Origin: a virus
UHGV virus genome: UHGV-0382441
Strand: one strand, 5' to 3'
Length of the DNA: 5,565 bases
Part shown: positions 1 to 5,565 of the stretch, in pieces
Numbering within the stretch: the first letter of the stretch is position 1
How the letters are laid out: every line of letters begins with the position of its first letter
The notes under the pieces: model-generated
Database searches by the model: none
What the model saw: only the letters and a program-made list of their open reading frames with translations
Told to the model about the DNA's origin: nothing
Made by a program: the position numbers and the translations under genes

Positions 1-609
1 ATATCCATCTCCTACACTAAGTTTCTTCCAGATATGGTTCACTCCGGTGATTACATATGCATTTTCTTCTTGTTTGTTGGCGTAGTAGTTTTTGAATATG
101 TCCCAGTACGCCAGATTGAATATTGCAGGAAATCTTCGTAGGTATTGATTTGTCTTGGATCGTCCGAATCCTTTTATTCCCAAGTATGAGATCAGCGAGC
201 TCGGGTTGACCTGCCCTCTGTTGGTGTCGTTTTCATAGATCGATGTGTTGGCTGTGTATACTTGAAATTGTGGCAATAGTACTTTACTCATGTTCAACCC
301 TACTCCTAAAGCGTTATTATGCAGCGCTGCTATGTAGAGTCTGATCGGAATTACGAATACGTCGATTTGATGTTTGAAACTTCCGAATACAGGTCCGGTC
401 GTCGGCAGTGTTTTTACTTTTGTCGTGATATCGATGTAAAATGTCGTTCCGTCCATACCTATTTGGCACCAATAGGGAACGATTGTGCCGCACGCTTGCG
501 ATGTTCGGATTATTTTTCCTACGTTATGCGATGATCTACCGAAATTAGGCAGATATACTTCCATTTTGCTTTCGCTTCGGATTCTGTCTCCTCCTAATGT
601 TTTTTTCAT
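1..609 (-). CDS. VP1: Major capsid protein VP1 (Microviridae F-like jelly-roll), N-terminal part. It continues across the circular junction into 4129..5565.
   Basis: ATG at 609-607 on '-'. My translation is MKKTLGGDRIRSESKMEVYLPNFGRSSHNVGKIIRTSQACGTIVPYWCQIGMDGTTFYIDITTKVKTLPTTGPVFGSFKHQIDVFVIPIRLY... This matches the conserved N-terminal pattern of gokushovirus and alpavirus VP1 (RSxF..S...T...G.L.P....LPGDTF.....FFVPxRL). It is 203 complete codons, ending exactly at base 1. There is no stop, so the ORF runs off the window edge. The six-frame track omits it because it has no in-window stop. Confidence 0.85.
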   Translation of the reverse strand, partial: MKKTLGGDRIRSESKMEVYLPNFGRSSHNVGKIIRTSQACGTIVPYWCQIGMDGTTFYIDITTKVKTLPTTGPVFGSFKHQIDVFVIPIRLYIAALHNNALGVGLNMSKVLLPQFQVYTANTSIYENDTNRGQVNPSSLISYLGIKGFGRSKTNQYLRRFPAIFNLAYWDIFKNYYANKQEENAYVITGVNHIWKKLSVGDGY

Positions 610-612
610 GGC

Positions 613-957
613 TTATTTCGTTTGATTGTTTTTCATTTCTTCGTTTACGTGCAGGATGAATATGAATGTTGCGGTCAGGATGTCTTCCCATTCTTTTTTA
701 GCTATGTGTTCTTCAGCTTCCTCTTTAGTGTCGAATTCCTTTCCGTTCAAGAGTGAGCCGCACATTGTGATCACCCATTTGTTTTTCTTATTGCGGATCA
801 GCACGAATATGCCGTTTTCCGATTGTACTCTTTCTTCGATTTCGAGGTTTACGCTTTCGATTTCTTCTTCTTTTTTTCCGCTTTCAGCAAGTAGCTGATT
901 TCTGAATTTTTTGTCCATGTTACTTGATTTTTGTTGTTGTTGATACTTTTTGTTCAT
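613..957 (-). CDS. Hypothetical protein (114 aa), directly upstream of VP1. Its start lies inside a 39-bp tandem duplication. The true start may instead be the second in-frame ATG at 918-916 (MDKKFRNQ…).
   Basis: ORF on the virion strand. Its TAA at 615-613 is followed by GCC and then the VP1 ATG, in the same frame. It has a charged, Glu/Lys-rich composition. Its position between the Rep module and VP1 suggests a small structural, scaffold or DNA-binding accessory protein. Confidence 0.5.
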   Translation of the reverse strand: MNKKYQQQQKSSNMDKKFRNQLLAESGKKEEEIESVNLEIEERVQSENGIFVLIRNKKNKWVITMCGSLLNGKEFDTKEEAEEHIAKKEWEDILTATFIFILHVNEEMKNNQTK

Positions 958-987
958 GTTACTTGATTTTTGTTGTTGTTGATACTT
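913..987. repeat. Tandem direct duplication with a 39-bp period. A 33-nt unit is identical at 916-948 and 955-987.
   Basis: catgttacttgatttttgttgttgttgatactt occurs twice, offset by 39 nt. On the virion strand this duplicates AAGTATCAACAACAACAAAAATCAAGTAAC-ATG, the leader and start codon of ORF114, and it contains the ORF56 stop codon. Confidence 0.8.
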
Positions 988-1129
988 CGACTGTGTCGAT
1001 TTTGATTCCGTTTGCTTTGAGGTAGTGCTTGTGAGTGCATCCTTGCTCCATGATTACGGCAGCTGCGGCGCCGATTGCGGCCGCTATTACCGCGATCCAT
1101 TTTACGATTTTCTTTACTTTTTCATTCAT
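959..1129 (-). CDS. Small membrane protein (56 aa) with a predicted single transmembrane helix. It is not in the supplied ORF track (below its size cut-off).
   Basis: ATG at 1129-1127, six nt after the ORF116 TAA. TAA at 961-959, one nt before the ORF114 ATG. Hand translation: MNEKVKKIVKWIAVIAAAIGAAAAVIMEQGCTHKHYLKANGIKIDTVEVSTTTKIK. A basic N-terminus is followed by a 20-residue hydrophobic Ala/Gly-rich segment with a small-xxx-small packing pattern. The helix is encoded by a local GC-rich island (gcggcgccgattgcggccgc) in an otherwise AT-rich genome. It fits exactly into the gap between two neighbouring genes. Confidence 0.5.
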   Translation of the reverse strand: MNEKVKKIVKWIAVIAAAIGAAAAVIMEQGCTHKHYLKANGIKIDTVEVSTTTKIK

Positions 1130-1132
1130 AGT

Positions 1133-1483
1133 TTAGCGATAATTGAGTGTTGGTTTTTTTTTGATCATTACTATCCTTCTGATAATAGGTTCGTACAGTT
1201 GTTTTCTTTCGTTGTATATCCAGTTGCTTACCTCGTAGAAACTGATGCCGGTTCTTTGTGGTTTTTGAGTATCTACGTATTCTTTGTCGAATGTTTCTCC
1301 GTCTTCTGTCACGTAGAATGTTCCTTCGTATTGGAAGTTTCGTTTGGATACTGTTTCTGCACCGATCAGTTTTATAAGATTAGTGGATCTATCTCCGATG
1401 TCTCCTCTTCCTTTGGTGAATTTATTATCCTGTTTCTGGTCAATATATTCTCTATTTTTCTGGTCGCAAATTCCGTTTCCCAT
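1133..1483 (-). CDS. Hypothetical protein (116 aa) immediately downstream of Rep.
   Basis: ATG at 1483-1481, three nt after the VP4 TGA at 1489-1487. TAA at 1135-1133. It is on the virion strand, tightly packed against its neighbours. I recognise no motif in it. Confidence 0.5.
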   Translation of the reverse strand: MGNGICDQKNREYIDQKQDNKFTKGRGDIGDRSTNLIKLIGAETVSKRNFQYEGTFYVTEDGETFDKEYVDTQKPQRTGISFYEVSNWIYNERKQLYEPIIRRIVMIKKKPTLNYR

Positions 1484-3645: not shown

Positions 3646-3740
3646 TTTCGTTCTTTTTTTAAAAAGAATTTATACCTATAGTTCTTGTTATATATGTATA
3701 AATGTCTACCGTTCTGTGCCACATATATTTACGAGGGTTA
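3646..3740 (-). promoter_or_regulatory. AT-rich non-coding leader upstream of VP2. Candidate promoter region with an imperfect inverted repeat.
   Basis: About 75% A+T. atatatgt at about 3692-3699 and acatatat at 3721-3728 form an imperfect inverted repeat. Virion-strand TATAAC / TATAAA-like hexamers are present. There is no clear Shine-Dalgarno motif before the VP2 ATG (…AAAAAAAGAACGAAA-ATG). Confidence 0.3.
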
Positions 3741-3771
3741 AAAGAGGGGGGCGGAAATATCCCCCCTCTTT
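3741..3771. terminator. Perfect 11-bp GC-rich hairpin (aaagagggggg / cggaaatat loop / cccccctcttt) in the only sizeable intergenic region. Candidate intrinsic terminator and/or replication-origin stem-loop.
   Basis: 3741-3751 is the exact reverse complement of 3761-3771, with a 9-nt loop. On the virion strand the stem is followed by TCTTTT-AACC. On the '+' strand it is followed by GAGTTTTGG. It lies about 30 nt downstream of the ORF107 stop and about 95 nt upstream of the VP2 start. Confidence 0.5.
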
Positions 3772-3800
3772 GAGTTTTGGTAGATCTTTATACGACTGCT

Positions 3801-4128: not shown

Positions 4129-5565
4129 TTATAAATTTGGAATTTGTTTTGCTGACATTACTCGACGTGCTGTTACGTCGAACGCTACTTGTACCCAGAA
4201 GTTTTGCGCACTTAGTCTCGACTCTGCGAATATGCTGTTGTATATCGTAGGGTCGATGTATGTCGTTGCGTTTTTAATCGAGCCGTCTTTATTTTCTTCG
4301 TATATTCTGTTCAAGCACATGAATGCTAAAGGCATTCCCGCGGCGAATTCGCCGTACGTTTCGTTTACGTCTGTCGTGTATTCGATCCATGAAGGTTGTT
4401 TTCCTAATGATTGGTACGTGTGTGTGTAGTTTTCAGTGGTTTCTGTGCTCCATGCAGCTGCTTCTTCCGCTATCAGTTCTTGAAATCCGATTGCGTCCAA
4501 TGTCGGTTTATGGAAGTCATCCATATTTTGCAGTCTTGTCCACCATTTGTTGCCTTGGCTGTAATCGATTCGAGGTGTGATCGATCCTAAGGCCATGATC
4601 ATGCTTGGTTCTGTGCATTTGATCTTCAAGCCTCTTCCGGATTTGTACATGGTTGCGACTCCTCGGCCGGCAAGTGTTCCTAATGGTTCTTCATCTGTCG
4701 CTGAGTTCGATACGATTTCGTCGAATGCGATTTCGCTTTGCATTCCGCCGCAGAAGATAGGAGATTCAGGCAGCGTTGTGCTTCTGATCCCGTACGTTGC
4801 CTCTCTCCACGCCTGATAGGTGCCGTCTGTAATAGCTACGCGATTCAGCATGTTGAAAATTTTCTTTTGAAGGATCAGAGCATCCATCGTAAGTTTTCCA
4901 TCGCTCACATCTACCGCTGTGATTGCGTTGATCCCTCCGGTCGTTCCGTCGATCCATTCGGTGTTCAGCCAGTTGTTGAACCTGTCGCTGAGATATGTTT
5001 TTATCGCCAACCCCGCTTGTGAGAACCATGCAAATGAGCTGGTATATGTTTGTGTGCGATCATGATTCGGCAGGTCTAAAGGCGCTGTCGCTGCCCTATA
5101 TGGCATTTTTGTATCGTCTATTACATATGCCGAGGAGCTGGGTGCCGCTAAGATTGCAGTTCGTACGTCGTCGATGGTTTTTAACGGGAATGGTGTTAGT
5201 TTGATCCTCTGGTTGTCCGGCATTGTTATTGCGTAAAGCCCGGTTTTATCTTCATTGTATGCAATTTTGATTTTCTTTTTGACCTTGTACATGTAAATGT
5301 TGGTTGCCTTCCTCAGGTTCTTCGGTTCCCTGAGTCCCGGCGCCTCCGGATCGGTTCGGTCGAATACAAAGCTGTCTCCGAGTTTTGTTAATTTGTTGGT
5401 TTTTGCTGTAGGGTTATTCGGATCATTCGTTAAGAATTGTATCTCGCCGACTGTGTCGGGTGAGACGTTTTCCTCGAATTCCAGTTTGATGTATTGCGGT
5501 TTTTCAGTAGTTGGATCGATTATGCATGTTTGACTTACGTTATTCTGCCATGATGCCCTCCAAGC
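4129..5565 (-). CDS. VP1: Major capsid protein VP1, C-terminal part. The frame is open from 5565 down to the TAA at 4131-4129. Total VP1 is about 681 aa when joined to 1..609.
   Basis: The track ORF 4129..5292 (387 aa) has a typical Microviridae VP1 C-terminus (…LGTLAGRGVATMYKSG…WSTET…FWVQVAFDVTARRVMSAKQIPNL). I translated upstream of the internal Met at 5292 and found no stop all the way to 5565. That frame is in phase with base 5565, and the 1..609 part ends in phase at base 1. Confidence 0.85.
   Translation of the reverse strand, partial: AWRASWQNNVSQTCIIDPTTEKPQYIKLEFEENVSPDTVGEIQFLTNDPNNPTAKTNKLTKLGDSFVFDRTDPEAPGLREPKNLRKATNIYMYKVKKKIKIAYNEDKTGLYAITMPDNQRIKLTPFPLKTIDDVRTAILAAPSSSAYVIDDTKMPYRAATAPLDLPNHDRTQTYTSSFAWFSQAGLAIKTYLSDRFNNWLNTEWIDGTTGGINAITAVDVSDGKLTMDALILQKKIFNMLNRVAITDGTYQAWREATYGIRSTTLPESPIFCGGMQSEIAFDEIVSNSATDEEPLGTLAGRGVATMYKSGRGLKIKCTEPSMIMALGSITPRIDYSQGNKWWTRLQNMDDFHKPTLDAIGFQELIAEEAAAWSTETTENYTHTYQSLGKQPSWIEYTTDVNETYGEFAAGMPLAFMCLNRIYEENKDGSIKNATTYIDPTIYNSIFAESRLSAQNFWVQVAFDVTARRVMSAKQIPNL

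Follow-up and report, generated by a model that had tools for sequence, protein, structure and literature searches.

How does a microvirus in which no endolysin can be recognised leave its host cell? Lysis in microviruses outside the phiX174 group is an acknowledged gap (PMC7062461), and the question is raised again by the virus genome UHGV-0382441, a stretch of 5,565 nucleotides (nt) that was analysed as a whole and is called the window here. It is a complete circular microvirus genome, because the capsid gene runs off position 1 and resumes at position 5565, and it was supplied as the complement of the coding strand, so that all long open reading frames (ORFs) lie on the minus strand. Between two of its genes, ORF116 and ORF114, lies ORF56, a frame of 56 codons that a first-pass annotation, made from the sequence alone, had put forward as a single-pass membrane protein with a possible role in lysis or membrane interaction. 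Is it a gene, what kind of protein does it encode, and what may this protein do? As described below, ORF56 is a genuine gene, its family has the predicted layout of a small lipoprotein, and genomic context makes lysis its best-supported candidate role.

An ATG-to-TAA frame is present at the place given in Table 1, and its translation is identical to that of the first-pass annotation. Among 32 distinct close relatives fetched via the replication gene Rep, the ratio of nonsynonymous to synonymous substitution rates (dN/dS) of ORF56 is 0.09 when the gene is read in frame, against 1.9-2.2 for the two shifted frames, and its variable sites fall on the three codon positions as 16/8/37. For comparison, Rep gives 0.12 and the DNA pilot gene 0.09; values for ORF114 and ORF116 are listed in Table 1. 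All Rep-found relatives whose locus covers the region have kept the frame. ORF56 is thus a genuine gene under purifying selection as strong as that on Rep. One might suspect that a frame so short, without a match in Pfam or PHROGs, has merely arisen by chance in an intergenic gap, but every relative has it intact and at the same length, and homologues occur in microviruses with no more than 28% Rep identity to the window; together with a ratio of 0.09 in frame against ~2 out of frame, which rules out a chance ORF, this leaves such an explanation a practically negligible probability. The first-pass annotation had made its proposal depend in part on conservation in related genomes, and both the frame and its hydrophobic segment are indeed conserved. 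It had also called the frame unlisted, which is not the case: the exact protein is already indexed in 486 blocks of public assemblies, public gene callers routinely call it, and a 93%-identical cluster is named in nr as 'hypothetical protein [Microviridae sp.]'. A protein search returned 190 clusters, and the 120 matches listed are all 79-96% identical, sit on contigs of ~5.55 kb and are in 103 cases exactly 56 amino acids (aa) long.

What kind of protein, then, is encoded? The Lys-rich N-terminus that had been described is there (Table 1), and so is the targeting to a membrane. The hydrophobic segment W11-M27 has a Kyte-Doolittle score of 2.44 in a 17-residue window, while the runner-up of the 28 ORFs of 20 aa or more on the coding strand reaches 1.39, and ORF56 is the only one of these with a transmembrane-grade segment. 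What could not be kept is the plain layout of a phiX174 E-like single-pass protein, for a cysteine that had been overlooked, Cys31, stands directly after the helix, and positive n-region, hydrophobic region and invariant Cys together form a lipoprotein signal peptide. Cys31 is invariant in the alignments A1, A2, A3 and A7 and is conserved also in the lipobox family that occupies the equivalent slot in other genomes (family B, see below); once divergent relatives are aligned, only Met1 and Cys31 remain invariant. Across the alignment of the family to which ORF56 belongs (family A, alignment A3), W11, A22, C31, G41 and D45 are invariant and T46 nearly so, and the family consensus can be written as M-x(3-10)-K-K-F-W-T-L-V-x-A-I-V-A-A-L-x-A-F-F-L-[SA]-S-C-x-x-Q-A-[KR]-V-x-R-x-G-[VI]-H-[IC]-D-T-V-[RQ]-V-D-Y. 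The residues leading up to the Cys in distinct family A sequences are FLSSC in 57 and FLASC in 40, and FAASC and FLTSC also occur.

The lipoprotein rule of PROSITE (PS51257) expects Lys or Arg in the first 7 residues, an uncharged stretch and a Cys at 15-35, with a lipobox of [AGS] at -1, [LIVMFYSTAGCQ] at -2 and [LIVMFWSTAG] at -3 and -4. ORF56 has K4, K6 and K7 in MNEKVKK, the stretch AAAAVI at residues 21-26, its Cys at 31 and the conservation among homologues that an acceptor Cys should have. In the lipobox, G at -1, Q at -2 and M at -4 fit, but Glu at -3 is disallowed, and all 25 distinct sequences of the window's clade read [MIL]-E-Q-G-C, whereas the rule is followed completely by ~100 distinct sequences of the wider family with F-L-[SA]-S-C. 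The architecture of the ORF56 family is therefore predicted to be a lipoprotein signal peptide followed by a mature peptide of ~25-33 residues, with lipidation as the predicted fate of the Cys. AlphaFold2, given an alignment of 24 sequences, places a helix at residues 3-28 with a predicted local distance difference test (pLDDT) score of ~80, and residues 28-56 score below 50 and have no confident fold. Alternating polar and apolar residues in G-I-K-I-D-T-V-E-V suggest a beta-strand or hairpin in the mature peptide. Small lipobox genes in the same position are also found in GenBank genomes: syntenic ORFs of 71 aa in MG945452 and 68 aa in OM869549 have VTTSC and TASSC, respectively, followed by T/S-H-K, which resembles C-T-H-K of the window. 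The latter, a homologue of the annotated 71-aa hypothetical protein of MG945452, lies unannotated at 4801-5007 of OM869549.1 (...LTASSC-STSHKVIQSAYNTSTGDSIVIRYEQ...), so that the annotation of such genes in GenBank is inconsistent.

If Glu at -3 breaks the lipobox rule in the window's clade, might Cys31 stay unlipidated there and the uncleaved helix itself be active, as a 'protein antibiotic' on MraY or MurJ in the manner of phiX174 E or LysM? E, a lysis protein of the single-gene (Sgl) type, inhibits MraY; its N-terminus faces out, and Pro21 in its transmembrane helix is essential. ORF56 is comparable in being a small microvirus membrane protein with an N-terminal hydrophobic helix, encoded by a genome without an endolysin, and it is the sole transmembrane ORF on the coding strand. 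Its helix is the most constrained part of the protein (dN/dS 0.03 for aa 1-30, 0.17 for the mature part), a difference that one would not usually expect of a mere signal peptide, and it contains many small-xxx-small motifs, which favour the packing of helix against helix. A passage in a preprint also states that all Sgl proteins with known targets inhibit the supply of lipid II (bioRxiv 10.1101/2023.10.16.562596). E is overprinted inside gene D while ORF56 occupies a slot of its own, flanked by spacers of 3 and 1 nt; nor is E a lipoprotein, while ORF56 has a positive N-terminus, no proline in the helix, the invariant post-helix Cys and a conserved periplasmic motif; and no similarity to E or LysM was found with PHROG and Pfam profiles. 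In the wider family it is the hydrophobicity of the helix that is conserved and not its sequence, together with the Cys and the motif G-x-x-x-D-T-V. Most members carry textbook lipoboxes, and therefore the ancestral state is that of a cleaved lipoprotein. Nothing points to the MraY or MurJ link that the first-pass annotation had proposed to examine, and we consider an uncleaved helix of this type decidedly improbable.

How widely is such a gene distributed? A profile search of a large collection gave 918 proteins at E <= 1 and, at E < 0.001, 56 representatives of 50%-identity clusters. The family A matches are 58-65 aa long; the exceptions are ~20 ORFs that reach 170-223 aa, two large proteins of repetitive sequence, and some gene calls that are fused or truncated. 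The long ORFs (P0172, P0178, P0181-P0185, P0189, P0191-P0195 and others) carry a Ser-rich low-complexity extension and end in a conserved ...RRGGRRKG.PRP...IPLGG[SK]HL; they may come from reading on into the neighbouring gene in another frame, or represent a true longer isoform. Family A occurs also in microviruses with a Rep just 28% identical to that of the window, in which the gene lies 1 nt upstream of the pilot gene instead of between Rep and the capsid gene. To judge how regularly the gene is present, we used genomes selected by their capsid, samples which are unbiased as to the small gene. In the clade with 28% Rep identity, family A was present in 71 of 72 complete genomes and an M15 peptidase in none of the 72. 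The second sample consisted of 60 complete genomes with Rep 38-40% identical to that of the window; 55 of them have a lipobox ORF of 63-75 aa, family B, with LTAQSC, LQAC, LGGC or VTSC followed by T-M-S-L-S-V-S-K-N-N..., in the slot equivalent to that of ORF56, with the ORF114 homologue and then the capsid gene directly downstream. An hhalign comparison of families A and B reached a probability of 76%, confined to the lipobox region, which leaves their homology open.

It is to be noted what stands in this slot when the lipoprotein is missing. Among the five genomes of the second sample without family B, four of one clade have an M15 peptidase there and one has neither gene. By simple arithmetic, all four M15 genomes would fall among the five lipoprotein-less ones with a chance of 5/487,635, a figure to be read in the light of the relatedness of the four. 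The M15 protein in the slot shares 44-54% identity with endolysins annotated in Bacteroides siphophages (B124-14, B40-8) and crAss-like phages. An IMG/VR search with a peptidase query had yielded almost no M15 microviruses, and the capsid-based sample and GenBank records took its place: in nine further M15-bearing microviruses from there, including the B. fragilis isolate phiHBP1, a lipoprotein ORF of 60-70 aa is likewise absent. The lipoprotein gene is thus missing from 13 of the 13 M15-bearing genomes examined, which belong to several lineages. In several M15 microviruses a tiny hydrophobic or amphipathic ORF of 27-31 aa, for example MKEKIKKVLEVIVIALSALLGALGGSSL, adjoins the peptidase gene, mostly unannotated. 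Such tiny ORFs are found in L219 (6040-6126), L223 (1138-1230), L040 (~4657-4737), phiHBP1 (L050, just after the M15 gene) and L182 (977-1072); with a Lys-rich start and an Ala/Leu helix they look like the N-terminus of ORF56, and those next to M15 genes are possible holin-like partners.

The first-pass annotation had stated that gokushovirus-like phages have no recognised lysis gene. This agrees with the window, in which no muralytic match (peptidase or lysozyme) was found in the seven larger ORFs scanned, the capsid being covered by its C-terminal 387 residues; as a general statement it has to be restricted, since in some gokusho- and alpa-like microviruses M15 peptidases have been acknowledged as candidates for lysis (PMC3394797, PMC9239249, PMC7062461). 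Our preferred reading is that ORF56 is a lipoprotein-type single-gene lysis effector, analogous and not homologous to the colicin lysis proteins, a candidate function whose chances we put at about even. It is preferred because it would explain at once why the gene behaves as a core gene, why it is the sole membrane-active candidate of a genome without a muralytic enzyme, and why lipoprotein-less genomes have an endolysin. The Lys-rich N-terminus and the Ala-rich helix would insert into the cytoplasmic membrane with the N-terminus inside and the C-terminus outside. Lgt would then diacylglycerylate Cys31 and signal peptidase II remove the signal peptide, steps which the canonical lipoboxes of the family support and which are uncertain for this clade; conservation of Lgt and Lsp extends to all bacteria (PMC11573676). 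A lipid-anchored peptide of 26 residues, probably a beta-hairpin, would be left in the periplasm, and its late accumulation might, by analogy with colicin lysis proteins, destabilise the envelope or trigger autolysis without a muralytic enzyme of the phage's own.

Colicin lysis proteins, or bacteriocin release proteins (PF02402, Lysis_col), are made as precursors of ~45-52 residues, consisting of a lipoprotein signal peptide and a mature lipopeptide of ~27-30, and cause quasi-lysis by one sufficient gene without muralytic activity (PMC9517006). ORF56, with 56 aa and 25 residues after the Cys, is of the same size class and has the same succession of n-region, helix, Cys and short predicted mature peptide, and in both a Gly stands 10 residues past the Cys. 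They differ in that the colicin genes belong to enterobacterial colicin plasmids and not to phages, that they act in E. coli via outer-membrane phospholipase A, which is not known for Bacteroidota, and that ORF56 has an atypical lipobox with Glu at -3 and a lytic activity that is putative. Comparison by hhalign of alignment A3 with three Lysis_col sequences, validated beforehand at 72-117 bits, gave 36% over the lipobox region only, and family B gave 5%. Spanins, whether o-spanins of the Rz1 type or u-spanins of the T1 gp11 type, are also small phage lipoproteins that take part in lysis of Gram-negative hosts. The o-spanins are proline-rich and require an inner-membrane i-spanin, and u-spanins have a C-terminal transmembrane segment; both act only after an endolysin. 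The window has no second coding-strand transmembrane ORF and no endolysin was found in it, and ORF56 as a whole contains no proline, its C-terminus being polar and without a helix. A holin, too, would need an endolysin gene, and in relatives the ORFs of 27-30 aa next to M15 fit this role better. ORF56 would be a candidate for a small lipoprotein with lytic activity, or for a single-gene lysis protein, met in a new context.

Several points weigh against a lytic lipoprotein. The functional argument draws on position and distribution only. The stronger constraint on the helix than on the mature part has been mentioned, and lipidation in the window's clade is uncertain with Glu at -3. A relationship to colicin lysis proteins was detected neither by hhalign, at the 36% given above, nor by a Pfam match. 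There is no evident route by which a lipopeptide of 25 residues would open peptidoglycan to free virions of 25-30 nm. Replacement by M15 within the slot, all in one clade, may be a single event. Neither in PQ006946 (L002), the closest GenBank relative, nor in L182 is there a lipoprotein or transmembrane ORF or an M15 gene, so the gene is not strictly indispensable, or other solutions exist. Finally, contig evidence does not fix the host of the window's clade, as described below. Some of these points would also fit another role at the envelope, such as membrane anchoring of replication or assembly, DNA delivery or modulation of the host envelope, in which case the alternation with M15 would be a coincidence: two genomes lack both types of gene, the in-slot replacement could be one event, and the variable slot between Rep and capsid generally takes accessory genes (PMC9239249). 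We regard such a role as quite unlikely, for no known step of microvirus replication or assembly requires a periplasmic lipopeptide, the co-occurrence with M15 is zero in 13 genomes of several lineages, and the genome would be left without any other lysis candidate.

Could the lipoprotein instead protect? Small phage-encoded lipoproteins on the periplasmic side, such as Llp of T5 and Cor, have the same general layout (bioRxiv 10.1101/2022.06.28.497910); a superinfection-exclusion or receptor-masking protein of this type would bind an outer-membrane receptor from inside, block adsorption or DNA entry, and keep progeny from being inactivated on cell debris. Carriage of a gokushovirus gives superinfection immunity by a mechanism that is unknown (PMC7062461), in the L045 and L069 clades just 1 nt separates the gene from the DNA pilot gene downstream of it, it is the first gene at the end of a prophage described below, which is typical of lysogenic-conversion genes, and from lineage to lineage the mature peptide changes rapidly, families A and B being alignable only around the lipobox. 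On the other hand, Llp and Cor are accessory genes and exclusion genes are usually sporadic, for which near-universality (71 of 72 and 55 of 60 genomes) is atypical; exclusion offers no reason why the slot should alternate with an endolysin or why the gene should be absent from all 13 M15 genomes; and there is no sequence match, nor any Pfam or PHROG match to a named family. Llp has an intramolecular disulphide, Cys11-Cys58, whereas ORF56 has a single Cys, the lipid acceptor, with ~25 residues in its mature part, which is far shorter than Llp. Exclusion is for these reasons unlikely.

Which bacteria carry these phages? On a 10.3-kb contig (Logan ERR14039818, L058), a microvirus prophage lies at ~2000-7300 between a gene for a CPBP protease and a gene for a peptidase S41, with the family A gene as the first phage gene at its left end. 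The cluster of the flanking CPBP protease is named from 'uncultured Alistipes sp.', and from this Alistipes-type flank it follows that at least part of family A infects Bacteroidota. Two other contigs were rejected as host evidence. A free, complete 5.7-kb contig of a relative in an isolate assembly of Acinetobacter lwoffii (L051, NZ_JACWEU010000076.1) is probably contamination. In ERZ987562 (L061) the phage breaks off within its pilot gene, where a truncated map-infA-rpsM operon takes over; the genes on both sides of the junction are truncated, and this is an assembly chimera. The nearest annotated relatives of the window are faecal microviruses with ~60% capsid identity ('bajarodmic', 'Dulem', 'Sigmofec', MG945452), and more distant capsid matches include records titled Parabacteroides phage.

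On the coding strand the genes follow one another as capsid, ORF107, an intergenic region of 155 nt, pilot, Rep, ORF116, ORF56, ORF114 and again capsid (Table 1). Rep is recognised by phrog_942 (E = 7e-33) and PF23343, and the DNA pilot protein is also recognisable in the PHROG and Pfam scans; Rep apparently starts with GTG at 2398, reading VCLYP... where relatives read MCLYP.... ORF56 had been said to fill its gap exactly, with 6 nt after the ORF116 stop and 1 nt before the ORF114 start. The latter spacer is correct; the former is 3 nt (TAA-ACT-ATG), and in relatives a version of ORF116 of 118 or 119 aa runs into ORF56 by 4 or 8 nt. The start of the next gene lies 1 nt past the ORF56 stop in 40 of 40 relatives, a spacing that would allow translational coupling. 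In the window this next gene appears as an ORF of 114 aa at 613-957, a length shared with only one other genome, while it is 101 aa in 37 of the 40 relatives. ORF114 is longer because of a 39-nt tandem duplication, which created the ATG at 957; its 13-residue N-terminal extension, MNKKYQQQQKSSN, is the 3' end of ORF56 in another frame, derived from this duplication.

Table 1. Positions of ORF56, its segments and neighbouring features in the window
Feature	Position	Strand	Basis or remark
ORF56, 56 codons and TAA; lipoprotein-like, membrane-targeted (family A)	959..1129	minus	translation, dN/dS, homologue sets
ORF56 codons 1-10, MNEKVKKIVK; positive n-region of signal peptide or anchor	1100..1129	minus	sequence; conserved in family alignments
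ORF56 codons 11-27, WIAVIAAAIGAAAAVIM; hydrophobic helix, encodes GC peak and NotI site	1049..1099	minus	hydropathy, AlphaFold2, dN/dS
ORF56 codons 28-31, E-Q-G-C; lipobox position, Cys31 at 1037-1039	1037..1048	minus	Cys invariant; Glu at -3 atypical
ORF56 codons 32-56, THKHYLKANGIKIDTVEVSTTTKIK; predicted periplasmic mature peptide	962..1036	minus	family motif C-x9-G-[IVL]-x-x-D-[TS]-[VI]
ORF116, upstream gene of 116 aa, function not assigned	1133..1483	minus	dN/dS 0.44
Downstream gene, conserved 101-aa form (ORF114 in the window)	613..918	minus	dN/dS 0.25; homologue of the gene preceding the capsid gene in all relatives
39-nt tandem duplication	908-946 / 947-985	n/a	copies 97% identical; covers last 9 codons and stop of ORF56, junction and start of next gene
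Major capsid gene	610..1 plus 5565..4129	minus	single 680-aa frame across the window ends

ORF56 had further been described as lying in a conspicuous GC-rich island with a palindrome at about 1076-1083. A local peak does exist (54% at 1000-1099), but over its full length the ORF is at 43% GC, with the genome at 42%. The palindrome, the NotI site GCGGCCGC, is present at 1077-1084, one position further on, and only 4 of 36 relatives have retained it. Peak and site alike arise because a hydrophobic helix is most easily encoded with Ala codons (GCN) on a coding strand of 41% A and 17% T; they are by-products of Ala and Gly codons without evident significance, and were rejected as signals. Elsewhere, the only sizeable intergenic region (3646-3800), between ORF107 and the pilot gene, contains at 3741-3771 a hairpin whose G/C-rich stem pairs perfectly over 11 bp, AAGAGGGGGG-loop-CCCCCCTCTT; on the coding strand TTTT comes next, and the folding energy is -11.7 kcal/mol (z = -3.9). 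It could be a terminator or an origin-related structure. A scan for promoters and terminators gave counts not above those of shuffled sequence.

How much of this had been noticed before? Pfam and PHROGs gave no named family for ORF56 (Pfam at E<=1), nor for ten divergent members (Pfam at E<=10). A tblastn search with ORF56 against GenBank phages gave no match, where the low-complexity filter may mask the Ala-rich helix and the clade is apparently not in the collection. Of 37 GenBank phage records that match a canonical member of family A, 14 have no feature at the place, 18 have 'hypothetical protein' and 5 have other labels. No description of the ORF56 family was found in the papers searched, among which the key studies of microvirus diversity offer M15 peptidases alone as lysis candidates, and no lipoprotein. 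The gene itself had been called before, only as a hypothetical protein.

Taken more broadly, the small lipoproteins of family A, family B and the MG945452 type might form an unrecognised class of single-gene lysis proteins, core genes of gut microviruses infecting Bacteroidota, which would be interchangeable with a cassette of a tiny transmembrane peptide and M15 peptidase and would hit a weak point of the Bacteroidota envelope. This wider proposal is tentative, and we think it somewhat more probably wrong than right. Since a microvirus isolate of Bacteroides now exists (phiHBP1, PV598014; PMC13064476), the idea of lysis by such a lipoprotein has become testable. Microviruses are among the most abundant phages of the mammalian gut, and a family of tiny lipoprotein genes, near-universal in several of their clades and with an endolysin instead where it is absent, offers a concrete candidate for the way in which they lyse their hosts. 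If this is true, lipoproteins and Bacteroidota would be added to the range of the single-gene lysis 'protein antibiotics', it could become possible to identify a new target in the envelope of a major gut phylum, and thousands of metagenomic microvirus genomes, in which the gene is now 'hypothetical' or missed, could be better annotated.

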